64,000 nt of DNA, taken from NCBI GenBank assembly GCA_934098395.1, contig CAKOOM010000003.1:88091-152090 (forward strand). The letters are read 5' to 3'. Both the position numbers and the translations under genes were made by a program. Positions within the stretch are counted from its first letter, which is position 1. The number at the start of each line of letters is the position of its first letter. Under the pieces are notes generated by a model. That model did no database searches and was not told the DNA's origin. It was given only the letters and a program-made list of their open reading frames with translations. This DNA is from an uncultured Bacilli bacterium. Its GTDB lineage: Bacteria; Bacillota_I; Bacilli_A; RF39; UBA660. This document shows, one piece after another, positions 41,018-54,401 of the stretch.

Positions 41018-43260
41018 AAAAAACAAAACTAATTATAGGAACATTCTTAGTATTATTACTATCATTTGTATGTTGTTATTTTATTAGTCCATTACTAAAT
41101 AAAATAAATTTTGGACTAGATTTACAAGGTGGATTTGAAGTATTATACGAAGTAAAACCCTTAAAAGAAGAAGATACTCTAACCCAAGATATGTTATATT
41201 CAACATATAAATCTATTCTTAAAAGAATTGATGTTCTTGGCGTATCAGAACCAGAAATAACTATCGAAGGAACAGACCGTATCAGAGTAAAATTAGCAGG
41301 TATAACTAATGCTGCTGATGCCAGAAACACTATCTCATCAACTGCTGTATTATCATTCAGAGACTACAGTGACAATCTTTTAATGACTAGTGACGTTCTT
41401 GGAGGACAAGCTAAAGTGACTACTGATTCCAAAGGAAAACCAGCAGTAAGTTTAAAAATAAAAGATACTGATAAATTTTATGAAGTAACTAAAAGAGTAA
41501 AAAATATGACAAACAACATCATGGTAATCTGGCTTGATTATGATGAAACAACTGACTCATATCGTAAAGAAATGGCTAAATGTGGAACAAACGAATCACA
41601 CTGTCTATCTGGAGCTAGAGTAGACCAAGCCTTTGCCAGTGATGTAATAATTCAAGGTAACTTTACCAAAGAAGAAGCCACAAAATTAGTAGAATTAATA
41701 AACTCTGGAGCCCTACCAACTAAACTAACAGAAATATCATCTCGAACAGTTGAAGCATCTTTTGGAGCAGATTCTCTAAACAAAACCCTAACAGCCGGAA
41801 TAATTGGAATAATCTTAGTAATTGTATTAATTACTGCCATATATCGTTTCTCAGGATTCATTGCCAGCTTTGGCTTAATCCTATACACATTCCTATCATT
41901 CTTAATATTCTATCTAATTAATGGCGTATTAACCTTACCTGGAATAGCAGCTATGTTACTAGGTATTGGTATGGCCGTAGATGCTAACGTAATATGCTTT
42001 GAAAGAATAAAAGAAAACCTATTAATAGGAAAAAGCTTAAAAGAATCATTTGATATTGGTAATAAAAGTAGCTTTACCAGCATAATAGATGCCAATGTTA
42101 CAACAATCATTGCTGCTATCATTATGTTTATCCTAGGACAAAGTTCAGTAAAAGGTTTTGCTACTATGTTAATTATCAATATTATCGTAACCATCTTAGT
42201 AATGGTATACCTAGTAAAATATATCTTAAAACTATTTGTTAAGACAAACTTCTTTGATAATAAACCTGGATTATTTATCGGAGTTAATAAAAAGAAAATA
42301 GAAAAAAGTAAAGAAGTACGCATACCATTTGCTAAATTAAATATTGTAAAACATCAAAAAATATTTATTACAGCTACCATTGTTCTATTTGTAATAGGTA
42401 TAACTATGTTTGTAACCACTAAAGCTAACTTTGGTGTAGACTTTACCGGTGGTACTAGTATAACTATTAACAATAAAGATGCTGACATTAATAAAATAGA
42501 AAAGTTATTAACTGATGAATCATATAAAATAGAAAAGAGTAGTACTAATGATAAAGAAATTAATATAACTATTTCTGAAACTCTAAATAAAGATGAAATA
42601 GCTAAGTTAACAAATACTCTAAAAGAAGATTATAAACTAGATAGTAATATCTACGTAGTAAGTAAAGTAGTAAAACAAGAATTAGTAAAAAATGCCGTTA
42701 AGTCATTAATAATAGCTAGCATTGGAATAATTATCTATGTAGCTATCAGATTTAGATTTAACTATGCCGTAAGTGGCGTTGTAGCTCTAATACACGACGT
42801 AGCCTTTACATTCCTATTCTTTGCTGCTACTAAAATACAAATAGATTCTATCTTTATAGCAGGTATTCTTACCATTATTGGTTACAGTATAAATGATACT
42901 ATTGTAACATTTGATATGATAAGAGAAAACTATAAAAACAAATATAAAAATAATATCACTAAACCAGAAGATTTAGATGAATTAGTAAATATCAGTATTC
43001 GTAGAACCTTATTTAGAAATATCTTAACAACAGTAACTACCATAATTCCAGTAATAGTTTTAATATTCCTAGGTTCTAAAGAAATACTAAACTTTAACTT
43101 ATCACTTTTAGTAGGTTTCATTGCTGGTGCATATTCATCAATCTTCATCTCTAATATGCTATGGCTAAAATTAGAAAAAAGAAGAATAAGTCAACCAAAG
43201 AAAAAACATGATGACAATGATGAAGTTGAAGAACTTAAAGTAAGAGGAATAAACTGCTAA
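41014..43260 (+). CDS. secDF: Protein translocase subunit SecDF (a fused SecD/SecF)
   Basis: 748 aa with 12 TM helices and two periplasmic-type loops. Confidence 0.92.
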   Translation: MKKTKLIIGTFLVLLLSFVCCYFISPLLNKINFGLDLQGGFEVLYEVKPLKEEDTLTQDMLYSTYKSILKRIDVLGVSEPEITIEGTDRIRVKLAGITNAADARNTISSTAVLSFRDYSDNLLMTSDVLGGQAKVTTDSKGKPAVSLKIKDTDKFYEVTKRVKNMTNNIMVIWLDYDETTDSYRKEMAKCGTNESHCLSGARVDQAFASDVIIQGNFTKEEATKLVELINSGALPTKLTEISSRTVEASFGADSLNKTLTAGIIGIILVIVLITAIYRFSGFIASFGLILYTFLSFLIFYLINGVLTLPGIAAMLLGIGMAVDANVICFERIKENLLIGKSLKESFDIGNKSSFTSIIDANVTTIIAAIIMFILGQSSVKGFATMLIINIIVTILVMVYLVKYILKLFVKTNFFDNKPGLFIGVNKKKIEKSKEVRIPFAKLNIVKHQKIFITATIVLFVIGITMFVTTKANFGVDFTGGTSITINNKDADINKIEKLLTDESYKIEKSSTNDKEINITISETLNKDEIAKLTNTLKEDYKLDSNIYVVSKVVKQELVKNAVKSLIIASIGIIIYVAIRFRFNYAVSGVVALIHDVAFTFLFFAATKIQIDSIFIAGILTIIGYSINDTIVTFDMIRENYKNKYKNNITKPEDLDELVNISIRRTLFRNILTTVTTIIPVIVLIFLGSKEILNFNLSLLVGFIAGAYSSIFISNMLWLKLEKRRISQPKKKHDDNDEVEELKVRGINC

Positions 43261-43343
43261 AGTATTAAGCTATCAAATTTGATAGCTTTTTGCAAATTAT
43301 AATGATATAATAAATTAATAATAGAGAAATTGAGGTGTTAAAT

Positions 43344-45494
43344 ATGAGTGTAAAAACAGAAAAGATTACTATCGAAGATTTGTTAGAAAAGTTTAGTCAA
43401 TATGATGATAATGTAGAAAACTTAAAATTAATAAGAAGTGCTTATGATTATGCTTATAAAAAGCACTTCTCCCAAAAAAGAATAACTGGTGATGATTATA
43501 TTACCCATCCCTTAAATGTTGCTTGGATCCTAACTGGAGTTAATGCCGACAGTCATGCTATTGCTGCTGCCTTACTACATGATACAATCGAAGATTCAGA
43601 TAGCACATATGAAGAAATAAAAGATTTATTTGGCGAAGATATTGCCAAAATTGTCGATGGCGTAACTAAAATTAATCGTTTAAAATTCCAATCAGATTCC
43701 GAGCAAATGGCTGCCAATCAAAGAAAAATTCTTGTTGGTTTATCTGAAGACGTTCGAGTTCTAATTGTAAAATTAGCCGACAGACTACACAACATGCGAA
43801 CACTTTATGTATTATCTGAAGCAAAACAAAAAAGAAAAGCCAAAGAAACCCTAGAAATATTAACTCCCGTGGCTCATAGATTAGGTATGTATAAATTAAA
43901 ATCAGAACTTGAAGACCTATCCTTAAGATACCTAAACCCAACAGCATACTACGAAGTCGTAGAAAAACTAAACCTAAAGAAAACAGAAAGAGATGAAGCT
44001 GTCGGAGCAATGCTTGAGGAAGTAAGCAATCTTCTAACAGAACATAACATTAATCACGAAATAAAAGGCCGTAGTAAAAGCATTTACAGTATCTATAACA
44101 AACTAAATAAAGGTCGTAAATTTGAAGATATCTATGATATTCTAGCTCTAAGAGTATTTGTTAATACCGAACAAGAATGTTACCTAGCCTTAGGATTAAT
44201 CCATTCAAAATATAAACCAGTACCCAAAAGATTTAAAGATTATATAGCTATGCCAAAAACAAATCTATATCAATCACTTCATACAACTGTATTTGGTATT
44301 GACGGCCAATTATTTGAAATTCAAATAAGAACATATGAAATGGATAAAATAGCCGAATATGGTATTGCTTCTCACTGGTCTTACAAAGAAAACAAACCAG
44401 TAAATTCTAAAGATACCGTCGAACAAAAACTAGAAATATTTAGAAGTATCATCGAATTAAATGAAGATTCCAGTACCTCTGAAGAATTTATTACCAATGT
44501 AAAAAAAGATATTTTAATAAACGATTCAATCTATGTATATACCCCTAAAGGGGACGTTATTGAATTACCAATCGGTTCAACTTGTGTTGACTTTGCATAT
44601 AGAGTTCACTCAGAAGTCGGAGACAAAATGGTCGGAGCAATTGTTAATGATAATATCGTTCCATTTGATTACACCCTAAAAACTGGTGATATCATCAAAG
44701 TAAACACTAGCAAATTATCTAAAGGGCCAAATAAAGATTGGCTAAACTTTGTTGTAACTAGCCAAGCTAAAAATAAAATAAAAGCCTTCTACACCAAGAG
44801 AGAAAAAAATGAAAACTTATCAAGAGGTATGGATATCTTTGAAAAAGCCTTAAGAAAAAGAAAATTGTCTTATCAAGACGTAATAGATAATCAATTAAAC
44901 ATCATCCTAGATACCCTTAAATTAAAAGATTTAGATGAATTATATATAGCCATAGGCTCTGGAAAATATACTATTGCCTCAGTCCTAAAAATAATCAACA
45001 AAAAAGAATCAGCTATCAATAAAATATTTAAGAAAAACCCAGTCATTAAAAAAGAACCACTAAAAAATGACATCCTCGTAGAAGGCATGAATGAAATAAA
45101 AGTAAGTCTAAGTAATTGCTGTAAACCAATCCCTGGAGATAATATCATCGGATATATCACTAAAGGCTCAGGCATAACAGTTCATCGTAGTAATTGTAAA
45201 AATATTCTTGACTTAGATGAAAGATTAATAAATGTAAAATGGAATGAAGATTTATTTAAAAAATTTCCTACCGATATTATGATATATACTAATACCAACG
45301 ATAATCTATTAGATATTATTACTAAAGCATCAGCAAATAACATCCTAATAGAAAGTGTTAATACTATAACTAAATCAGAATTTAAAATATATAGCATGAC
45401 TATCCTAATAGAAAATACTGAAAAACTAGATAAATTCTTTAAAGAACTTTATAAACTTAGTTTCATTCAAAAAATAGAAAGGCAGATAAATTAA
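43344..45494 (+). CDS. relA: Bifunctional (p)ppGpp synthetase/hydrolase RelA/SpoT (Rel). I place the start at ATG 43344
   Basis: HD domain (HD..ED), synthetase domain, TGS and ACT domains. The RBS GAGGTG precedes ATG 43344. Confidence 0.92.
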   Translation: MSVKTEKITIEDLLEKFSQYDDNVENLKLIRSAYDYAYKKHFSQKRITGDDYITHPLNVAWILTGVNADSHAIAAALLHDTIEDSDSTYEEIKDLFGEDIAKIVDGVTKINRLKFQSDSEQMAANQRKILVGLSEDVRVLIVKLADRLHNMRTLYVLSEAKQKRKAKETLEILTPVAHRLGMYKLKSELEDLSLRYLNPTAYYEVVEKLNLKKTERDEAVGAMLEEVSNLLTEHNINHEIKGRSKSIYSIYNKLNKGRKFEDIYDILALRVFVNTEQECYLALGLIHSKYKPVPKRFKDYIAMPKTNLYQSLHTTVFGIDGQLFEIQIRTYEMDKIAEYGIASHWSYKENKPVNSKDTVEQKLEIFRSIIELNEDSSTSEEFITNVKKDILINDSIYVYTPKGDVIELPIGSTCVDFAYRVHSEVGDKMVGAIVNDNIVPFDYTLKTGDIIKVNTSKLSKGPNKDWLNFVVTSQAKNKIKAFYTKREKNENLSRGMDIFEKALRKRKLSYQDVIDNQLNIILDTLKLKDLDELYIAIGSGKYTIASVLKIINKKESAINKIFKKNPVIKKEPLKNDILVEGMNEIKVSLSNCCKPIPGDNIIGYITKGSGITVHRSNCKNILDLDERLINVKWNEDLFKKFPTDIMIYTNTNDNLLDIITKASANNILIESVNTITKSEFKIYSMTILIENTEKLDKFFKELYKLSFIQKIERQIN

Positions 45495-45931
45495 TGAAAA
45501 TAATCGTTCAAAGATGTGAAAAAGCAAAAGTAACTGTTAAAGGTAAAACCGTCGGATCTATCGAATCAGGATTAATGCTTTTAGTAGGCTTTACCCATAC
45601 TGATACCGAAAAAGAAATAGATTACATGGTAGATAAAGTAATTAACTTAAGAATTTTTGATGATGAAGCTGGCATAATGAATAAAAGCTTAATAGATACA
45701 AAAGGAAGTATTCTCTCAGTAAGCCAATTCACTTTATATGCCGACCCATCAAAAGGTCGAAGACCAAGTTATATTAAAGCCTTATCTGGTGATAAAGCCA
45801 TTAATCTATATAATCTATTTAATCAAAAACTAAAAGAAAAAAACATCCACGTCGAAACAGGTTTATTTGGAGCCGAGATGAAAGTAGACTTTATAAATGA
45901 TGGACCAATAACTATTATTCTAGAAAAATAA
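45494..45931 (+). CDS. dtd: D-aminoacyl-tRNA deacylase
   Basis: MKIIVQR...SGLMLLVGF and the SQFTL motif. Confidence 0.9.
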   Translation: MKIIVQRCEKAKVTVKGKTVGSIESGLMLLVGFTHTDTEKEIDYMVDKVINLRIFDDEAGIMNKSLIDTKGSILSVSQFTLYADPSKGRRPSYIKALSGDKAINLYNLFNQKLKEKNIHVETGLFGAEMKVDFINDGPITIILEK

Positions 45932-46013
45932 TTGTAAAATAAAAGTAAGCTTAATAAATAAAGTTTACTTTTTTTTCTATCTTTGCTATATTATTATAAA
46001 GGATAGTGTAACT

Positions 46014-47141
46014 ATGAAAAAAACAAAATTAGATAAACCATTACTAATAGTAATGATTGTATTTCTTGTATTTGGACTTATCATGGTACTTAGTGCCTCA
46101 TCTATGGCATCATACATGAGATATGATAAGAATATATATGACTATTTCATAAAACAAGCAATCTTTATCCTTGCAGGATTAGTTGCCTTTCTAATAGCCA
46201 CATATTTTCCAACTAAGTTATTTAAAAAAATATCCCCATTTCTAATGTTTATCTTAATTCTATCTTTAGTAGGATTAATGTTTTATGGGAATGATAATGG
46301 TACTAGTCAAAGCTGGTATAACTTAAAAGTAATTACCATTCAACCAAGTGAAATGGGTAAAATAATCATCGTATTATATTTAGCAAATTACTATAATAAT
46401 CATAAGGATGAACTAGATAATCAATGGATTCTTTTAAAACCACTAATATTAGTAATTATTAACTTTGTATTAATAGCTATGCAACCAGACTTAGGAACAG
46501 CTAGTGTTATCTTTGGTATAGTTGTAATGATATTCTATGCCTTACCATTAAAAAAACAAACTAGAACTCCCATAAACAAAATCTTCTTAGGAGGTATTCT
46601 CTTAGTGGTATTATCCCTAATACTAACAGGAGGTTCATTCTTAAGAGATTATCAATTAGAAAGATTTAACTTCTTAAACCCTTGTGAAAGATATGAAGAA
46701 GAATCTGGATATCAATTATGTAATAGTTTAATAGCCTTTAAAAATGGAGGTCTAACAGGTAAAGGAATAGGTGAAAGTACTCAAAAATATCTATATTTAC
46801 CAGAAGCTCATACCGATTTTATCTTTCCTATAATCGTCGAAGAGTGGGGCTTAATTGTTGGAATAATAATAATTTTATTATATCTATTTATTCTTTATCG
46901 AATTCTAAATATTGCTAAAAAAGCTACTAATCTAGGTAATTCAATAATTGCTTATGGAGTATTTGCATATCTCTTACTCCATATCTCTATTAACCTAATA
47001 GGAGTAATGGGTATTGGTCCATTAACAGGTGTCCCTCTACCATTCTTATCATATGGTGGTAGTTATATGTTAACCTTGTTATTTGCTATGGGCTTAGTTC
47101 AAAGAGTTCATTATGAAACATATAAAAAATCAAGAAAGTAA
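46014..47141 (+). CDS. SEDS-family peptidoglycan glycosyltransferase (FtsW/RodA/SpoVE)
   Basis: 375 aa with 10 TM helices. The motifs QPSE.GK and GGLTGKG are present. Confidence 0.85.
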   Translation: MKKTKLDKPLLIVMIVFLVFGLIMVLSASSMASYMRYDKNIYDYFIKQAIFILAGLVAFLIATYFPTKLFKKISPFLMFILILSLVGLMFYGNDNGTSQSWYNLKVITIQPSEMGKIIIVLYLANYYNNHKDELDNQWILLKPLILVIINFVLIAMQPDLGTASVIFGIVVMIFYALPLKKQTRTPINKIFLGGILLVVLSLILTGGSFLRDYQLERFNFLNPCERYEEESGYQLCNSLIAFKNGGLTGKGIGESTQKYLYLPEAHTDFIFPIIVEEWGLIVGIIIILLYLFILYRILNIAKKATNLGNSIIAYGVFAYLLLHISINLIGVMGIGPLTGVPLPFLSYGGSYMLTLLFAMGLVQRVHYETYKKSRK

Positions 47142-47166
47142 TGAGTTAGATTCTAACTCATTTTCT
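47142..47166 (+). terminator. Terminator hairpin TGAGTTAGATTCTAACTCA followed by a T-run
   Basis: An 8-bp stem with a 3-nt loop, followed by TTTTCT. Confidence 0.6.
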
Positions 47167-47289
47167 ATTACTTTAATACCTCTAGTTAATTAATTTGACA
47201 AACCAATTAATCCTTGCTATCATGTGTACGAACACTTAATAGTTAGGTACTCCATACTTTTATTAAAAGTAAAAGAGGAGTTGATTTTT

Positions 47290-47376
47290 ATGAAAGAAAA
47301 AGACATAATAATCTTTTATCAGGGGGTAGTGATATTCCTACTAATAATCATCATATTATTGATGCTTATAAAATAA
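47290..47376 (+). CDS. 28-aa hydrophobic peptide (MKEKDIIIFYQGVVIFLLIIIILLMLIK). It is a candidate type I toxin (Fst/Ldr-like class)
   Basis: RBS AAAAGAGGAG lies 9 nt upstream. It has a single TM helix, and it is followed immediately by the bidirectional terminator. Confidence 0.4.
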   Translation: MKEKDIIIFYQGVVIFLLIIIILLMLIK

Positions 47377-47381
47377 AAAAA

Positions 47382-47405
47382 GTACCTAACATAAGCTGTT
47401 AGGTA
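47382..47405. terminator. Bidirectional terminator GTACCTAAC-ATAAGCT-GTTAGGTA, flanked by A-runs upstream and A/T-rich sequence downstream
   Basis: Perfect hairpin. A convergent minus-strand promoter (TTGAAT-17-TATGAT, plus coordinates 47481-47509) points into it. Confidence 0.55.
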
Positions 47406-47539
47406 ACCAAAAACATTTCGGAGTACTTAACACGCAAATATTAAGTGTTCCTTTTTTATGAAGTTCCCTTCATTACACTAATCATATCATAATTTATCTT
47501 TTAATTCAACTATATTAAATGCTTTTTCTATATAGTGAA

Positions 47540-47830
47540 AATTCATTTTCTATTACTTTAATACCTCTAGTTAATTAATTTGACAAACAAATTAATTCTT
47601 GCTAATATGTGTACGAACACTTAATAGTTAGGTACACCATACTTTTATTAAAAGTAAAAGAGGAGTTGATTTTTATAAAATAAAAAAAGTACCTAACATA
47701 AGCTGTTAGGTATAACCTAAATATTAAGGAGTACTTAACACGCAAATATTAAGTGTTCCTTTTTTTATGAAGTCTCCTTCATTCATATCAATCATATCAC
47801 AATTTATCTTTTAATTCAACTATAATTGTT
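47540..47830 (+). repeat. Copy 2 of the tandem element. The peptide ORF is absent (there is no ATG), but the plus-strand promoter (-10 now TAATAT), the terminator (47689-47712) and the minus-strand promoter are all retained
   Basis: It aligns with copy 1 across the whole element apart from the 78-bp deletion. Confidence 0.8.
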
Positions 47831-47860
47831 GTATAATAAAAATAATTACTAAATAGATAA

Positions 47861-47971
47861 AATAATGCTTTTTCCATATAGTGAAAAAGTATTATTTTTT
47901 TATCCAAAAACCGTTGACATCCTAACTATTTTTTTTTGCGGTATCATAATTATATATGATAGGTGAGATAG
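47861..47971 (+). promoter_or_regulatory. Second copy of the terminator+promoter module (AATAATGCTTTTT...AAAAAGTATTATTTTTTT, CCGTTGACATCC, TTTGCGGTATCAT, GATAGGTGAGATAG-ATG)
   Basis: About 90 % identical to 35041-35150. TTGACA is at 47914-47919 and TATCAT at 47942-47947, with a 22-nt spacer. Confidence 0.55.
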
Positions 47972-49141
47972 ATGAAAGATCATAAATGTATAAATTGCCA
48001 AGCAGAAATTGAAGAAAATGATAACTTTTGTTGGAAATGTGGTCATTGGAGCGCTAAAGGATATTCCTTTTTTAATAATAACGAAGAAGTTGTTAAAATA
48101 GTCGAAGAGGGAAATCTAGCTAAGCATGATACTAGAAATGCTTATTTAATCTTTATGTTATTATTAACATTTATAATCTTTTTAGCTCTATCTTGGTATC
48201 GTGGAATGGATATCTTTAGACCAGTATTTTATTTAGAAAAACAAGTATATAAATATATTTACGGTTACAATGTTTCTATATTAAAAACTGACAATCAATA
48301 CTATAACAAGTCAATAAATAGTTTAAATGATGCTAACAATTACATAATAAAAGATTTAAACGAACAAGATTATAAATGTGGTAATAATATTGAAGTTCAC
48401 AAAATTGAAGATAGACTAGAAAAAGATTATGCTATTAAAGCTGTTAATTTTTGCGATATATCACTTGAAGAAACTAAACGCTTAGCAACCGTAATTGACA
48501 AAATGTATAATTTATTTCCAAGTGTTAAAGGATATTTAACAAACATCAGTATAACTAACGCCAAAGAACAAGAAATATATATTGCTTATTTTGAACCAAT
48601 ATATCAATTTGTTAACAGTAATGCTGATATCAGTAGTTTTAATAAAGTAAATAAAACACAAATATTACTAAATAGTTATTATTTTCTAAATGAAGAAACT
48701 ATTAAAAATAGCATAACAGAAAAAGTTGCAAAAGATTGGTATGTTAATGATGCAACTTGGGAATCATTATTTTCTCATGAATTTGGTCATTATATATCGT
48801 TTGTAGCACTACTAAAACTCCATGGTATTAATAGTATAACATTTGAAACAAAAGATAATTATCAGCAAATACAACAAATAATTGATGAGTTTAATGGTAG
48901 AGAATATTCAAATCAGTTGTTAAATGAAGCCTATAATAATTACAAATTAATTTATTCATATAATGGCGATATTAACACATTTGCTCTGAGTATATCTAAA
49001 TATGCCGCTAATAAAGATAAATCTGGAAAATTAATTGCTGATGAAACTCTAGCCGAAGCAATTCATGATTATTATTTACATGGATCTAACGCAAAAGCAC
49101 AAAGTTTAGAAATAGTAAAAGTTATAAACTCAAAATTGTGA
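47972..49141 (+). CDS. Membrane protein with an N-terminal C4 zinc ribbon, one TM helix, and an extracytoplasmic domain bearing a HEFGH (HExxH) motif. It is a putative zinc-metallopeptidase-like protein
   Basis: CINCQ...CWKCGH, the TM helix LIFMLLLTFIIFLALSWY, and FSHEFGHY. Confidence 0.55.
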   Translation: MKDHKCINCQAEIEENDNFCWKCGHWSAKGYSFFNNNEEVVKIVEEGNLAKHDTRNAYLIFMLLLTFIIFLALSWYRGMDIFRPVFYLEKQVYKYIYGYNVSILKTDNQYYNKSINSLNDANNYIIKDLNEQDYKCGNNIEVHKIEDRLEKDYAIKAVNFCDISLEETKRLATVIDKMYNLFPSVKGYLTNISITNAKEQEIYIAYFEPIYQFVNSNADISSFNKVNKTQILLNSYYFLNEETIKNSITEKVAKDWYVNDATWESLFSHEFGHYISFVALLKLHGINSITFETKDNYQQIQQIIDEFNGREYSNQLLNEAYNNYKLIYSYNGDINTFALSISKYAANKDKSGKLIADETLAEAIHDYYLHGSNAKAQSLEIVKVINSKL

Positions 49142-49150
49142 GGTGAAATA

Positions 49151-49327
49151 ATGCTTAAATGTCTTAATTGTAACAAAGTTTGTAAAGATACCGATAAATA
49201 TTGTAGAAACTGTGGAGTAACTCTAAAAAGAAAAAGCTACTATATCTTAACAAATATTTTTAGTTTTATATTACTAATAGGTTTAATCATTATGATAGCA
49301 TTATTTATTGCTTCATATTACGTATAA
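49151..49327 (+). CDS. Small zinc-ribbon membrane protein (58 aa; CLNC...CRNC followed by a TM helix)
   Basis: RBS AGGTGA lies 5 nt before ATG 49151. It was not in the ORF track. Confidence 0.45.
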   Translation: MLKCLNCNKVCKDTDKYCRNCGVTLKRKSYYILTNIFSFILLIGLIIMIALFIASYYV

Positions 49328-49335
49328 AAGAAGGG

Positions 49336-51966
49336 TTGAGTATGGAAAATAAAAAAAATTATCAAAAAACAGTCGAAGAAATATATAAAGAATTTAATAC
49401 GAGTATTAATGGAATAACTGAAGAAGAAGCTATTAAAAGATTACAAGAGTATGGTGAAAATAAATTAACTGAAAAAAAGAAACAATCAAATATTATAATG
49501 TTTTTAAATCAATTTAATGACTTTATGATAATTTTATTAATATTTGCTTCTATTTTTTCAGCAGTCATTTCATATATTAGACACGAATCATATATAGATT
49601 CCATTATAATAATTGTAATCGTAGTAATTAATGCTATTCTTAGTTTTATCCAAGAAAAAAAAGCCGATGTTGCTATTGAAGAACTAAATAAAATGTTCGT
49701 GACTAATAATTATGTTATTAGAAATGGTAAAAAAGAATCGATTGATGTAAGAAACATTGTCGTAGGTGATATCATTGAATTAGAAGCTGGTGATTATGTC
49801 TCAGCAGACTGTCGAATAATTACTGCCGAAGGACTTGAAGTAAATGAATCAACCCTAACTGGAGAATCTAAATCAATAAAAAAAGATAATACTAACATCT
49901 TCGAAGAAAAAGAATTATATGAAAGAAAAAATATGGTTCATGCAGGTTGTAATGTAACAAACGGTCATGCCTTCGTAGTCGTATGTCAAACCGGTATGAA
50001 TACTGAACTTGGTAAAATAGCTACAAGTCTATTAAACAAAAAAAGCGATATAACACCATTACAAAAAAAGGTAAATCAGATAAGTAAGATATTAACTTAT
50101 ATAATTCTTGGAATAATAGTTATCATGATGATAATTGGTTTGCTTTTAAAAAATGATTTTTTTGACGTAGTAATGTTATCAATATCTTTAGCCGTTGCTG
50201 CAATTCCTGAAGGAATGTCTTCTATAATTACCATTATTTTATCACTAGGCATGACTGCTATGGCAAAAAAGAATGTTATAATTAGAAAAATGGCTTCCGT
50301 AGAAACATTAGGTTCAACAGATATTATTTGTTCAGATAAAACTGGAACAATAACTCAAAACAAAATGTTAGTCAAGTCTATTTATGTCAACGATTCATTA
50401 TATAATGAAACAGATAAAATAGAAAACAACCATATGCTTTTATATTGTGCAAATTTTTGCCAAAACGTCGTAAAAAATGATGACAAATATCTTGGGGATG
50501 AAACCGAAGTAGCAATATATAAATATCTTGAAGATATTAATTTCAAAGTAAATGAAGAAAACAAACGTATAAAAGAGTATCCATTTGATTCAGATAGAAA
50601 AATGATGAGTGTTATAACTAGCATTGGATCTAATACATATTCATTCACAAAAGGTAGCCTTGAATCAATAATAAATAAATGTAATAAATTTATATCTAAT
50701 GGAAATATTTATTATATAAACGATGAATACAGACAAAAAGTCTTAAATATTGAAAAAGAACAAAGTGAAAAGTCATTAAGAATATTAGCTTTTGCATATA
50801 AAACAGATAACTTAGAACAACCAGAAGAAGATATGATTTTTATTGGCTTAATAGGTATGATGGATCCACCAAGAGATACTGTATCAAATGCTATAGAAAT
50901 ATGTAAAAAATCCGGTATAAAACCAATAATGATAACTGGAGATAGTATAAATACTGCCCGTGCTATTGCTAAACAAGTTGGTATTATCGACGTAGACGAC
51001 AAAGCTATCGAAGGAAAAATAGTAGATAAAATGAGTGATGAAGAATTAAAGAAAGCAGTAACCTATTATCAAGTATATGCCAGAATATCACCAAACACAA
51101 AACTAAGAATTGTTGAGTCACTTCAAAGTCAAGGATTAGTCGTAGCTATGACTGGTGATGGAGTAAATGATGCTCCAGCAATTCAAAAAGCTGATATTGG
51201 TATTGGTATGGGGATAACAGGAACAGAGGTAGTAAAAAAAGTAGCAGACTGTATCCTTGTGGATGATAGCTTTTCAACAATAGTTACTGGTGTAGAAGAG
51301 GGAAGAAGAATAACCTCAAATATAAAAAAAGTAATTCTTTATCTACTCGCAGGCAATATAATTGAAGTTATATTAGTATTCATATCAATGTTAATGAATA
51401 TGGAAATGTTTACAACTCTTCAATTGTTATGGATAAATCTAGTTACAGACTCTATTCCAGCAATTATGTTAGCATTTGAAAAGTCATCAAGTGATATAAT
51501 GGAAAACACTCCTGATAACAGAAACAACTCATCATTCTTTACTCCATTTTTATCAGCAAAAATAATAATTAGCGCTATTGTAAAATCAATTGTTATGATG
51601 TCACTCTTTATCTATATCGTATCAGCAACAGATGCCAATGTAGCAAGCTCACTATTATTTATCTTTCTTGTATGTCATGAATTATTGTTTGCTTTCTCAT
51701 GTAGAGATTTAAAGAAAAGTGTTTTAAACAAAAACTTTTTTGCCAATAAAAGATTAAGCATTGGCATCATATCAATATTACTAATCCAAATAATAATTCT
51801 AACAACAGGATTGTCAAAATTCTTTATTGTACCTGGTATAGAATTTAAATATATTCTAATAACTGTAATTGCATGTCTAGCTACATTTATCATTGGTGAA
51901 TTTTTAAAACCTATTTATACTAAATTATTTAAAGATTATACTGGGGGTGATAAGTATGAAATTTAA
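49336..51966 (+). CDS. Cation-transporting P-type ATPase, type IIA (a Ca2+-ATPase-like pump)
   Basis: DKTGTIT, TGDGVNDAP, TGES, and 10 TM helices, in 876 aa. Confidence 0.9.
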   Translation: MSMENKKNYQKTVEEIYKEFNTSINGITEEEAIKRLQEYGENKLTEKKKQSNIIMFLNQFNDFMIILLIFASIFSAVISYIRHESYIDSIIIIVIVVINAILSFIQEKKADVAIEELNKMFVTNNYVIRNGKKESIDVRNIVVGDIIELEAGDYVSADCRIITAEGLEVNESTLTGESKSIKKDNTNIFEEKELYERKNMVHAGCNVTNGHAFVVVCQTGMNTELGKIATSLLNKKSDITPLQKKVNQISKILTYIILGIIVIMMIIGLLLKNDFFDVVMLSISLAVAAIPEGMSSIITIILSLGMTAMAKKNVIIRKMASVETLGSTDIICSDKTGTITQNKMLVKSIYVNDSLYNETDKIENNHMLLYCANFCQNVVKNDDKYLGDETEVAIYKYLEDINFKVNEENKRIKEYPFDSDRKMMSVITSIGSNTYSFTKGSLESIINKCNKFISNGNIYYINDEYRQKVLNIEKEQSEKSLRILAFAYKTDNLEQPEEDMIFIGLIGMMDPPRDTVSNAIEICKKSGIKPIMITGDSINTARAIAKQVGIIDVDDKAIEGKIVDKMSDEELKKAVTYYQVYARISPNTKLRIVESLQSQGLVVAMTGDGVNDAPAIQKADIGIGMGITGTEVVKKVADCILVDDSFSTIVTGVEEGRRITSNIKKVILYLLAGNIIEVILVFISMLMNMEMFTTLQLLWINLVTDSIPAIMLAFEKSSSDIMENTPDNRNNSSFFTPFLSAKIIISAIVKSIVMMSLFIYIVSATDANVASSLLFIFLVCHELLFAFSCRDLKKSVLNKNFFANKRLSIGIISILLIQIIILTTGLSKFFIVPGIEFKYILITVIACLATFIIGEFLKPIYTKLFKDYTGGDKYEI

Positions 51967-52348
51967 TAATCAAAGTTCATCAAATACAATTATTCTCGGA
52001 GGAATAATATTTGGAATATTTATCTATGTCTTAGCAATAAATATACTACCTAGTAATGTTAAAAGTGATTCATACTATTCCAAGGTAGATGAAGAGATGA
52101 CTGCTAAAATAGCTGATATAACATATAAAAATAAATTGCTAAATATCAAAACAGTTGGTTCTCCAGATTACATCTGTATAAAAACAACTAGAACTAATCC
52201 AAAAGTTACATCTCCATGTTGGAAAAAAATAGAAAATAATAATTACTCATCATCTATTTATACTTATAAAGAATATTATATTTGGTTAATGGATTCAAAT
52301 AAAGTTATTAGTTCCCCAACAAAATATAGTCTAGATTCATCATCATAA
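51956..52348 (+). CDS. Hypothetical small membrane-anchored protein. I place the start at ATG 51956
   Basis: RBS GGGGTGA. An N-terminal TM helix. Confidence 0.4.
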   Translation: MKFNNQSSSNTIILGGIIFGIFIYVLAINILPSNVKSDSYYSKVDEEMTAKIADITYKNKLLNIKTVGSPDYICIKTTRTNPKVTSPCWKKIENNNYSSSIYTYKEYYIWLMDSNKVISSPTKYSLDSSS

Positions 52349-52359
52349 GGAGAATAATT

Positions 52360-52872
52360 ATGTATAACGCAAATGAAATGCCATTATCAAATAGAGAAGA
52401 ACTAAAAGATATTCAAATAAAAGTATTAAATAATATTCCCATAACTATTGGAGAACGTTTAAAACTAGGTAGAGATAAAGTAGTAAGAGAAATTAATGGT
52501 TATCAATTAAAACCTAATTGTGTATATCGTGCTATAAGTCAAAGAACTCTAGAAAAATACCAAGAATATGGTTATATAGTAGGCAATGATCGTGAAGATG
52601 AGTATGTTGAGTATATTAAAGATGGAAAAATTTATAATAATAACCGTGGAGTAGATTGGTATCTAGGTGGAGCAGCTCCAGGATATGGAGAAATTATTCT
52701 TGAATGTCCGGCATATAAAGAATATTTTATTCCTGCATATGATAATGGCAGTGGTATGGCACTCGATCCTCTAGTAAGACATATGAAATCATCCGGAGCA
52801 AAAAATCCTGTTCCCCTAAGTATGATAACCAATATATTCTACATTCAAAAAGAAAAAAATCTAAAAAGATAA
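52360..52872 (+). CDS. Hypothetical protein (170 aa)
   Basis: RBS AAGGAGA. No family recognised. Confidence 0.45.
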   Translation: MYNANEMPLSNREELKDIQIKVLNNIPITIGERLKLGRDKVVREINGYQLKPNCVYRAISQRTLEKYQEYGYIVGNDREDEYVEYIKDGKIYNNNRGVDWYLGGAAPGYGEIILECPAYKEYFIPAYDNGSGMALDPLVRHMKSSGAKNPVPLSMITNIFYIQKEKNLKR

Positions 52873-52885
52873 TTTATAAGAGAAA

Positions 52886-52909
52886 AGGACTAAAACAGTC
52901 CTTCTTTTA
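52886..52909 (+). terminator. Terminator hairpin AGGACTAAAACAGTCCT plus TCTTTT. An identical copy lies at 53290-53313
   Basis: A 6-bp perfect stem with a 5-nt loop. The two copies form a 25-bp exact direct repeat flanking the dinJ-like gene. Confidence 0.6.
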
Positions 52910-52995
52910 AAAGTAAAAAATGTAATGACAAAATAATGTAAATGTATTGACAATTTCTAAAAAATAACATACAATTATATCAAAGGAGGGGTAAT

Positions 52996-53289
52996 ATGAA
53001 TAGTATACCTAACACTACAAATTTAAATGTTAGAGTAGATTCTACACTTAAACAAGAAAGCGATAAATTATTTAAAAATTTAGGTTTAAATATGAGTACT
53101 GCAATTAATATGTTTTTAACCAAATGTGTTAAAACATCAAGTATCCCTTTTAAAATTGAAGAACCTACTCCGAGTAAAGAACTAGAAAAAGCATTAAAAG
53201 AACTAGATTATATGATGAAACATCCTGATAAATACAAAGCTTATAATTCAGTTGAAGAATTATTTAAAAAATTAGATAAAAATAATTAA
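52996..53289 (+). CDS. RelB/DinJ-family type II antitoxin with no adjacent toxin gene (an orphan)
   Basis: NLNVRVDSTLKQESDKLFKNLGLNMSTAINMFLTKCVKTSSIPFKI resembles the DinJ N-terminal ribbon-helix-helix. Its own promoter is TTGACA-17-TACAAT (52947-52975). Confidence 0.65.
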   Translation: MNSIPNTTNLNVRVDSTLKQESDKLFKNLGLNMSTAINMFLTKCVKTSSIPFKIEEPTPSKELEKALKELDYMMKHPDKYKAYNSVEELFKKLDKNN

Positions 53290-53327: not shown

Positions 53328-54401
53328 GTGAATAAACATATGAAAAAAATATTATTACTATTATTCGTAATGTTATCTTTGATATACACGCCAAGAGTAA
53401 ATGCTTCAACCGAATCAGCTACTAGCTATGTCTTATTAGACCAAGATACCAATAGAGTATTACTGTCAAAAAACAAAGATAAGCCAATGTTAATAGCATC
53501 TATTACCAAGATAATGACCTGTATTATAGCCTTAGAAAATAAAAACATTTCTGATCTTGTAGTCGTAGATGATTCCATTAAAGAAAGCTATGGTTCAGGT
53601 ATTTATATCTCCGTAGGAGAAGAAATAACCCTAAAAGATTTACTATATGGATTAATGCTTCGTAGCGGAAATGATGCTGCTATTATGATAAGTACCTATG
53701 TCTCCGGTTCCGTTGACTCCTTCGTAGATCTAATGAATCAAAAAGCCAAAGAAATAGGTATGAAAAATACTGTCTTCCATAATCCAAGCGGACTAGATAA
53801 TAATACCATTGGTAATACCTCAACCGCATATGATATGGCCTTATTAACTAGCTATGCCATGCAAAATAAAACATATAGAGAAATAGTTAAAACAAAAAAA
53901 TATACTGCAAAAACAAATCTAAAAACATATATTTGGCACAATAAAAACAAACTCTTACAATATGACTACATTACCGGAGGAAAAACGGGATATACTGAAA
54001 AAGCCAAAAGAACTCTCGTATCAACCGCTAGTAAAAATAATTTAAATCTAGTCGTAGTAACCATAAAAGATTCAGATGATTGGAATACTCATAAATCTCT
54101 CTATGAATATGCCTTTGATAATTATAAATCTTATAATATTTTAAATAAAAAAACTTTCAGTATTCCTAAAGATAAATACTATGATTCCCTTTATATCAAA
54201 AATGATGTATCTATAATTTTAAACATTAACGAAACAAAGAATGTTATATCTCACATAAAATTAGAAAAAAAGAAACATTATAAAAATAATGAAAAAGTAG
54301 GTACTAGTTATATTTATGTAGGAAAAAAATTAGTTCATAAAGAAGACATATATGCTAGAAAAACAAATAAAAAAGAAAGTATTTTTAAGAGAATATTTTA
54401 A
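53328..54401 (+). CDS. dacB: D-alanyl-D-alanine carboxypeptidase (S11; a PBP5*/DacB-like protein)
   Basis: A signal peptide, plus SITK (SxxK), SGN and KTG motifs. It is followed by spmA and spmB. Confidence 0.85.
   Translation: MNKHMKKILLLLFVMLSLIYTPRVNASTESATSYVLLDQDTNRVLLSKNKDKPMLIASITKIMTCIIALENKNISDLVVVDDSIKESYGSGIYISVGEEITLKDLLYGLMLRSGNDAAIMISTYVSGSVDSFVDLMNQKAKEIGMKNTVFHNPSGLDNNTIGNTSTAYDMALLTSYAMQNKTYREIVKTKKYTAKTNLKTYIWHNKNKLLQYDYITGGKTGYTEKAKRTLVSTASKNNLNLVVVTIKDSDDWNTHKSLYEYAFDNYKSYNILNKKTFSIPKDKYYDSLYIKNDVSIILNINETKNVISHIKLEKKKHYKNNEKVGTSYIYVGKKLVHKEDIYARKTNKKESIFKRIF

Follow-up and report, generated by a model that had tools for sequence, protein, structure and literature searches.

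A candidate cis-antisense-controlled small-toxin module downstream of ftsW in an uncultured Bacilli bacterium

The window analyzed herein is a stretch of 64,000 nucleotides from an uncultured Bacilli bacterium (contig CAKOOM010000003.1), in which the 830-bp intergenic stretch between ftsW (46014–47141) and a zinc-ribbon gene (47972–49141) houses two tandem copies of a small module. Judged from its sequence, the module is real and constrained, is restricted to the species and is organized in the manner of a type I toxin–antitoxin (TA) locus. The reading that we favor, with slightly better than even confidence, is that of a cis-antisense-controlled small-toxin module of the type I TA kind, present as one intact copy and one copy without the toxin open reading frame (ORF). 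To judge by the motif counts, the folding z-scores and the uniqueness of the ORF, none of the module features looks like chance, and a new type I TA-like family, not described before, is a plausible assignment. An earlier sequence-only reading had proposed such a module; the membrane-peptide mRNA and the convergent antisense unit of ~100 nt were recovered in our predictions, while the peptide matches no toxin family. Every element listed in that reading was found in place or a few bases away.

Layout and predicted RNAs of the tandem module

The tandem duplication noted earlier is borne out by a direct repeat in which 47155–47301 and 47540–47686 are 95% identical. The repeat period is 385 bp before an indel and 307 bp after it, which sets the deletion in copy 2 at 78 bp, and the similarity between the copies picks up again past the gap and extends up to 47824. 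The ORF is among the exactly 78 bp missing from copy 2, and the deletion junction lies near 47676–47680, between short repeats TTGATnnTTAT; the ORF of copy 2 appears to have been lost via a microhomology deletion. Within the 64 kb, the core motifs were confined to the two module copies (chance expectation, 0), and nhmmer detected no third copy in the window.

On the plus strand, copy 1 carries the promoter TTGACA-17-TATCAT (47195–47223), with 11 of 12 consensus matches and the TG of an extended −10. The hexamers are kept in other strains, with the exception of one −35 (TTGAAA) and one −10 (TAATAT). The predicted peptide mRNA of ~228 nt (47230–47457, plus strand) folds with a minimum free energy (MFE) of −61.5 kcal/mol (z = −6.9); the ends of this and of the antisense RNA are inferred, those of the mRNA from the −10 box at the start and from the terminator at the 3′ end. 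In the MFE fold, the opening 24 nt of the mRNA pair with its terminal hairpin in a helix of 24 bp that contains a 7-nt bulge, and this is what the inverted copy of a segment of the 5′ untranslated region (UTR) reported earlier (47230–47253 and 47420–47451) turned out to be. The 5′ arm of the helix (47230–47253, plus strand) ends in ACUCC (47249–47253), which is complementary to the Shine–Dalgarno (SD) sequence. A 5′-UTR hairpin (47257–47275) and then the SD GAGGAG (47275–47280) are predicted next (47257–47280, plus strand).

The ribosome-binding site and hydrophobic ORF of the sequence-only reading could both be located, the strong SD lying 9 nt before the ATG of a 28-aa ORF (47290–47376, plus strand; MKEKDIIIFYQGVVIFLLIIIILLMLIK), the candidate membrane toxin. 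Its product has a 22-residue hydrophobic stretch and falls within the Fozo criteria of 16–70 aa and at least 10 hydrophobic residues in 15 (PMC2887945). When ORFs of 20–60 aa were searched over both strands of the window (128 kb of strand) for an ATG, a 5-mer SD core and a membrane-like stretch of at least 15 hydrophobic residues in 18, this was the sole ORF combining the three.

Convergent to this unit, copy 1 has a minus-strand promoter, TTGAAT-17-TG-n-TATGAT (47481–47509), also with an extended −10; as previously read, it is found in both copies, each with the TG. The predicted antisense RNA of ~100 nt (47375–47474, minus strand; fold z = −5.3) consists of a 5′ hairpin (47473–47458) followed by a perfect complement of the mRNA 3′ UTR (47457–47375). 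Its intrinsic terminator (47375–47405, minus strand; stem 47405–47397/47391–47383, U7 at 47381–47375, −11.1 kcal/mol) abuts the stop codon of the ORF. This hairpin had been taken for a shared bidirectional terminator with A-runs on both sides (47382–47405). The hairpin is there, but the A-run 3′ of it is present in copy 1 and missing in copy 2, and the T-run of the 47383–47405 hairpin stands on the minus-strand side only. The sharing does not hold, since the plus strand ends at a separate hairpin, the 3′ arm of the 5′–3′ helix (47420–47457, plus strand; GGAGUACUUAA / UUAAGUGUUCC and U6, also written GGAGTACTTAA...TTAAGTGTTCC plus T6; −8.4 kcal/mol locally). The spacer between the two 3′-UTR hairpins (47406–47419) is hypervariable, with most positions differing and indels among strains.

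The two RNAs share ~83 nt (47375–47457), that is, the whole 81-nt 3′ UTR up to the stop codon. Co-folding, a check of the mRNA–antisense interaction that had been suggested with the sequence-only reading, predicted a full duplex of 83 bp at the 3′ UTR. In the complex, the freed ACUCC (47249–47253) is predicted to pair with GGAGU (47276–47280) at a probability of ~1, and likewise wherever the 3′ arm is lacking or already engaged. For the window's allele, SD pairing in the mRNA alone is ~0.45, and for the full-length variants the prediction is 45%–85%. A second antisense target at the SD or start codon, of the Fst or SprA1 kind, was looked for, and the pairing found there was no better than that of shuffled sequences: for the best antisense duplex with the 5′ region, the fraction of shuffled controls was 0.08 when the whole antisense RNA was used and 0.23 for its 5′ part.

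Copy 2 agrees with its earlier description, in that the 78-bp deletion takes the ORF, the −10 is TAATAT and both promoters are retained. Its plus promoter, TTGACA-17-TG-n-TAATAT (47580–47608), is predicted to yield an ORF-less transcript of ~152 nt (47615–47766, plus strand; z = −7.5), in which the anti-SD is mutated to ACACC. The antisense unit (47682–47819, minus strand) comprises a promoter at 47819–47791 with the TG, an RNA from ~47784 to 47682 and a terminator hairpin at 47712–47690 with U7. With both promoters and the entire antisense part kept, the proposal that copy 2 is an antitoxin-only copy is consistent with these predictions, and it fits because the copy 2 antisense RNA can pair with the 3′ UTR of copy 1 (dimer at −143 kcal/mol, against −168 kcal/mol for the cognate RNA).

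Strain alleles, constraint and searches for relatives

The FtsW product encoded next to the module occurs in human-gut metagenome assemblies, Hadza samples included, and its relatives are metagenome-assembled genomes labeled Bacilli, Tenericutes or Erysipelotrichaceae. ERZ4560852 and ERZ4561717, both from Hadza samples, are among the assemblies containing the species. Among the strains with an identical FtsW (loci are cited by their L numbers), the window arrangement is found in L001, a single intact module in L002 and L003, and two intact modules in L004, whose peptides differ (MQKKD... and MKEKD...); the contigs of L005 and L006 end within the repeat. Because L004 keeps both ORFs intact, the 78-bp loss is strain-specific and recent. 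In L111 and L117, a complete single module is followed by DNA unrelated to the window, so that the complete module is a constant unit in at least three unrelated downstream contexts.

A different, short allele is carried by the strains with the commonest FtsW variants, P0123 (190 contigs) and P0132 (35 contigs). It aligns to the window at 43014–47389 and resumes at 53279 (98.5% and 99.3% identity), and so is missing a strain-variable segment of 5.9 kb (47377–53278) bordered by ATAAAATAA (47368–47376) and ATAAAAATAA (53279–53288). What is left of the module in the short allele is the plus promoter, the 5′ UTR including the 24-nt arm, the SD and the ORF, whereas the 3′ arm, the minus-strand terminator and the antisense promoter are missing; directly behind the stop codon come the terminator AAGGACTAAAACAGTCCTTCTTTT and then a Peptidase_S11 (dacA-like) gene (window 53328–54401). 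In all five variants of it that were folded, the SD is predicted to be paired at ~1.0. The simplest history would be a microhomology deletion leading from the long to the short allele, which is favored because these flanks border the segment; an insertion is disfavored, since the chance gain of a 24-nt complement to a pre-existing 5′ UTR would be implausible.

Conservation within the species follows the predicted elements. Among seven distinct complete modules, 14 of the 226 predicted functional positions (promoter hexamers, stems, SD, U-runs and ORF) vary, compared with 40 of the 89 in loops and spacers (Fisher p = 9e-15), a test in which the alleles are linked and the position classes were set by us, though from single-sequence predictions. 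Leaving out the ORF, the functional count is 6 of 139 (p = 8e-14), and within the ORF it is 8 of 87. The 5′ arm (47230–47253) is invariant in the seven modules save for one C-to-U change that retains a G-U pair, the antisense terminator stems are invariant, and so are the arms of the plus terminator, the 7-nt bulge/loop being variable; in total, 41 of 41 modeled base pairs stay paired in all sequences. Some of the changes are strand-specific in their effect: one stem change in the antisense 5′ hairpin of L117 preserves pairing on the minus-strand RNA only, and the A-to-G and C-to-U changes in the 5′-UTR hairpin preserve it on the plus-strand RNA only. About half of the 17 spacer bases in the antisense promoter of L117 differ, with TTGAAT, TG-n-TATGAT and the 17-nt spacing retained.

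The reading frame of the peptide is open in 16 of 16 distinct allele sequences. Over all alleles, the nonsynonymous changes are K2Q, E3K, F9Y/S, Y10F, V12I, L17P and L18P, alongside two to three synonymous ones. L17P and L18P are the only helix-breaking substitutions and are confined to the allele without the antisense part (L100, L102); we count this restriction of the double-proline allele for the toxin reading, as we do the promoter and terminator layout, the folds, the constraint across strains, the retained antisense promoter and the strand-specific stem change of L117, and the recurrence of the module in unrelated downstream contexts.

Relatives of the module were found only within the species. 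The peptide had no match in Pfam or NCBIfam, even at E ≤ 1 and E ≤ 10, nor any PHROG family. In Rfam, the window gave no match at the gathering threshold, and the region searched at E ≤ 10 gave just chance-level snoRNA and miRNA entries and no antitoxin family. Exact-pattern scans for the 5′ arm in GTDB genomes and IMG/VR, and for the 3′ arm in JGI metagenomes, returned zero matches. A back-translated pattern for IIFYQGVVI produced three in the metagenomes and IMG/VR, and the two examined (L094, L095) were rejected as chance matches outside any comparable ORF; the third (L096) lies on a contig equal in length (41,322 bp) to that of L094. In plasmid and phage collections, blastn and tblastn found just a 31-nt chance match in Acinetobacter, and blastn over 86 loci and tblastn and nhmmer over ~105 loci, including the ftsW regions of 80 related species, found same-species matches only. 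Neither the module nor a small SD-preceded hydrophobic ORF follows ftsW in the sister lineages (FtsW at 97%, 89% and 85% identity) or in the 13 loci checked as the closest among those of the 80 related species; a conserved small ORF was likewise not found after ftsW in related species, and relatives of the zinc-ribbon gene have a helix-turn-helix (HTH) gene upstream and no module. The dozens of copies that would mark a generic repeat are thus absent from the window, the related ftsW regions and the collections.

Proposed mechanism, known systems and competing explanations

In the scheme that we propose, a strong sigma-A-type promoter would produce the mRNA of ~228 nt, whose first 24 nt are predicted to pair with its last hairpin and close the molecule, probably shielding both ends from nucleases. 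The mRNA would encode a single-helix membrane peptide of 28 aa that, by analogy, may be harmful in excess. The convergent extended −10 promoter would drive an RNA of ~100 nt, in silico a perfect complement of the 81-nt 3′ UTR ending at the stop codon, and the resulting 83-bp duplex would be a substrate for RNase III, leading to mRNA decay as in TxpA/RatA and BsrG/SR4. The same duplex is predicted to displace the 5′ arm, whose freed ACUCC could then lock the SD, and copy 2 would supply extra antisense RNA and no toxin. By analogy with those systems, our choice for the presumed primary mode is duplex formation and decay set off by the antisense RNA, and we regard re-sequestration of the SD as a secondary, allele-dependent possibility. 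The short allele, the common one among the strains sampled, is tolerated, probably because the loss of the 3′ arm leaves its SD, by prediction, sequestered for good; another possibility is that the peptide is only weakly toxic.

A more specific form of this scheme, which we offer as a speculation and think rather unlikely to be correct, is that the 5′ end of the mRNA mimics its own antitoxin (5′ arm GAACACUUAAUA...GUUAGGUACUCC; antisense RNA GGAACACUUAAUA...GUUAAGUACUCC), so that the arm and the antisense RNA compete for the 3′-UTR hairpin and translation is activated by the 3′ UTR, which titrates the anti-SD. If so, the antisense RNA would silence the mRNA by moving the 5′ arm onto the SD, in addition to decay, and the allele with the 5.9-kb deletion would be self-silencing, explaining a toxin gene without its antitoxin in most strains. 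Such a mode would be the opposite of that in hok and AapA1, where the 5′–3′ helix silences the mRNA.

Several points weigh against a toxin module. The peptide and both RNAs, with their ends, are predictions. Measured against the consensus, the promoter of the peptide mRNA looks stronger than that of the antisense RNA, the reverse of the situation in many type I loci. No homologue turned up in any family library or collection searched. The majority allele has the promoter and the ORF and no cis-antisense RNA; the antisense RNA is therefore dispensable for viability, and the peptide is tolerated without it and not lethal at its native level. A rough count puts the ratio of nonsynonymous to synonymous change (dN/dS) near 1, which gives no clear sign of purifying selection on the peptide. 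No covariation was detected among the stems, which never vary, so that this test is without power. Nor is the SD switch robust: in four of the seven variants (L002, L004 copy 1, L111 and L117) the SD is mostly paired despite the 5′–3′ helix, and as a general rule the switch was therefore rejected, holding for the window's allele and failing in those four. Our confidence in the toxin reading is held down by the prevalence of the antisense-less allele and by expression and toxicity standing as predictions.

Among known systems, the layout fits the 3′-overlapping Gram-positive loci such as BsrG/SR4 and TxpA/RatA better than Fst/par. In the Gram-positive type I families, the antisense RNA is on the 3′ side (PMC8594479). 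As in BsrG/SR4, TxpA/RatA, BsrE/SR5 and YonT/SR6 of Bacillus subtilis, the module is predicted to have convergent RNAs that pair at their 3′ ends, a small single-helix membrane peptide (30–59 aa there, 28 aa here), a toxin mRNA with its SD partly sequestered, and a long perfect duplex in which an RNase III cut is expected. In BsrG/SR4, binding of the antitoxin at the 3′ end extends an SD-sequestering helix and also promotes decay (PMC3834814, PMC6562991). Deletion of the SR5 antitoxin is tolerated, BsrE being a weak toxin (PMC6562991), a parallel to the natural antisense-less alleles described above. There are also differences: neither the peptide nor the RNAs are similar in sequence; the antisense RNAs of TxpA/RatA and BsrE-G-H overlap the ORF (PMC8594479), whereas the one here ends at the stop codon; the 5′ end of the mRNA here, unlike theirs, pairs with the antisense target sequence itself; and those systems are encoded by prophages or the skin element, in contrast to a module located between ftsW and dacA.

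The Fst/par geometry favored by the sequence-only reading did not stand. Fst/RNAII (par of Enterococcus faecalis pAD1, and the chromosomal Fst-like loci) shares with the module, as predicted, a Gram-positive origin, convergent RNAs, a peptide of ~30 aa, a 5′ structure that restricts translation, and an antisense RNA on the 3′ side that does not overlap the ORF (PMC8594479); Fst homologues are also found in tandem in some genomes (PMC2887945). However, Fst loci have one bidirectional terminator where the module has two separate ones around an overlap of ~83 nt, and the Fst antitoxin pairs with 5′ and start-codon repeats outside the overlap, a region in which the module's antisense RNA pairs no better than shuffled controls. 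For these reasons, an Fst/par-type scheme was ruled out. The peptide is, by our reading, also without the tryptophan and charged tail described for Ldr and Fst peptides (PMC2887945). Membership in any named type I family was likewise rejected, there being no Pfam, NCBIfam or PHROG match for the peptide and no Rfam antitoxin family.

The Gram-negative hok/Sok and AapA1/IsoA1 resemble the module in that their full-length toxin mRNA is closed by a long-distance 5′–3′ interaction and control depends centrally on how the mRNA folds, as proposed here (PMC5416894, PMC6733600). Their antisense RNAs, however, pair near the 5′ end or initiation region, whereas the 3′ arm is the target here, and their 5′–3′ helix keeps the mRNA inert until 3′ processing, whereas that of the window's own allele is predicted to free the SD. 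From Escherichia coli, ZorO/OrzO, Ibs/Sib and Ldr/Rdl share the duplication of short hydrophobic ORFs in one intergenic region and have strains with one, two or no copies (PMC2887945, PMC3919570), but they differ in phylum and in antitoxin position and show no sequence similarity. Short membrane ORFs in tandem within one intergenic region are a published criterion for new type I toxins (PMC2887945), and a tandem duplication with one or two copies according to the strain, and with ORF loss, is typical type I TA behavior.

Four other explanations were considered. The locus could be an ordinary gene for a non-toxic small membrane protein, with a structured 3′ UTR and, in some strains, a convergent regulatory small RNA (sRNA), having a physiological role tied, for example, to the cell-wall genes ftsW and dacA. 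We consider this unlikely. In its favor, the ORF, its promoter and the 5′ UTR are present in every sampled strain of the species, mostly without the antisense half, and the gene lies between ftsW and the Peptidase_S11 carboxypeptidase gene, which in the short allele may be reached by read-through from the module promoter. Yet the ORF is missing after ftsW in the sister lineages and the 13 closest related species checked, a membrane helix that accommodates two prolines at a dN/dS of ~1 is not what such a protein would lead one to expect, toxin loci typically show tandem duplication and loss of the ORF, and the fully sequestered SD predicted for the short allele would be unfit for a constitutively needed protein. 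The absence of evident purifying selection on the peptide is in turn a point for a pair of structured non-coding RNAs, an sRNA and its antisense partner, in which the 28-codon ORF is incidental in AT-rich DNA and untranslated; so are the good fold of the ORF-less copy 2 transcript (z = −7.5), with both promoters intact, and the prediction, for most states and variants, of an SD that is largely sequestered. We hold this pair to be distinctly improbable, as the combination of an ideally spaced GAGGAG and ATG with a 22-residue hydrophobic stretch is found a single time over 128 kb of strand, every one of the 16 distinct alleles has an open ORF, the ORF varies at 8 of 87 positions compared with 40 of 89 in the spacers, and Rfam has no match.

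Very improbable, in our view, is a cis-regulatory leader, that is, a leader peptide with a terminator or attenuator serving the zinc-ribbon/ATPase operon in the window and, where the short allele is present, dacA. The 5′ arm is able to pair with both arms of the plus terminator, allowing alternative structures, and in the short allele the ORF is followed by just a weak terminator and the dacA ribosome-binding site. But with the 5′ arm bound to both arms of the terminator, the U-tract follows a long helix, which is no antiterminator geometry, the conserved convergent promoter and minus-strand terminator would have no role in an attenuator, the identical complete module stands upstream of three unrelated sequences, and what comes after copy 1 is copy 2, not a gene. 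The alternative already raised with the sequence-only reading, a generic dispersed repeat akin to a miniature inverted-repeat transposable element (MITE), whose inverted repeats would be transposon ends and whose promoter and ORF features would be fortuitous, is scarcely credible. Imperfect inverted repeats of 24 nt placed 166 nt apart, a unit of ~220 bp and thus of MITE-like size, and a copy number of two speak for it. Against it, the only copies in the 64 kb are the two in tandem, in a 385-bp unit that reaches well past the inverted repeats; reading the flanks reveals no target-site duplication; in the short allele just the left arm is present, in the same place; no match came from GTDB species genomes, JGI metagenomes, IMG/VR, plasmids or phages; and the ftsW regions of the 80 related species are without a copy, the count within the species itself covering the 64-kb window.

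If the type I TA reading is confirmed, the module would represent a type I family without sequence relatives in an uncultured low-GC lineage of human-gut Bacilli; no type I system described from this lineage came to our notice, but no literature search was aimed at it. The metagenomes provide a natural allelic series, namely intact single, intact double, toxin-deleted, antitoxin-deleted and proline-substituted toxin alleles, which are the mutants one would construct to dissect the mechanism, and the locus could serve as a compact test case for 3′-UTR-targeted antisense control and 5′–3′ mRNA circularization. Failing that, the module would still stand as a well-defined small-gene locus, specific to the species and placed at a hotspot of strain variation.

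The variable segment and its surroundings

The 5.9-kb segment missing from the short allele contains the 3′ half of copy 1, copy 2, the zinc-ribbon gene, a 58-aa gene, a P-type ATPase gene, two genes of unknown type and an orphan RelB gene. The corresponding proteins are a zinc-ribbon membrane protein of 389 aa, a 58-aa zinc-ribbon protein, a P-type cation ATPase, and proteins of 133 and 170 aa without a family. In related species, the cluster of zinc-ribbon, 60-aa, ATPase and ~130-aa genes sits elsewhere, behind a divergent HTH gene. The RelB-family (type II) antitoxin gene (52996–53289; Pfam E = 8e-14) has no adjacent toxin partner. Its position is the right-hand boundary of the variable segment, and the terminator behind the small ORF in the short allele is that of this RelB gene.

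In that allele (L097–L104), ~65 nt separate the stop of the small ORF from the dacA start, and they are made up of the weak terminator and the ribosome-binding site. A dacA promoter of its own would not fit into this interval, and transcripts from the strong promoter of the module may therefore run through the terminator into dacA. In some short-allele strains (L098, L114–L116 and L118), the dacA-like Peptidase_S11 gene is cut to 114 aa, from the equivalent of window position ~53674 onward, and is followed by differing genes (HTH_36, LytR_cpsA_psr, Wzz), so that the right flank is strain-variable as well. Related species have a pair of ~100-aa genes right after ftsW (L007, 6199–6844; L107, 4213–4851), which, judged by eye, are WXG100/ESAT-6-like. 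The slot immediately following ftsW is thereby marked once more as variable.

Between copy 2 and the zinc-ribbon gene lies an inverted repeat of 16 nt (47859–47898; AAAATAATGCTTTTTC / GAAAAAGTATTATTTT) with 94% complementarity, part of which (AATGCTTTTTC..ATATAGTGAAAA) also closes copy 1 at 47518–47541. Farther toward the zinc-ribbon gene, TTGACA (47914–47919), a T-run (47929–47937) and TATCAT (47942–47947) could constitute a slippage-prone promoter or be non-functional. The T-run varies by strain, with 9, 8, 7 or 6 T (L002, L003 and L004 included), giving spacers of 20–22 nt.

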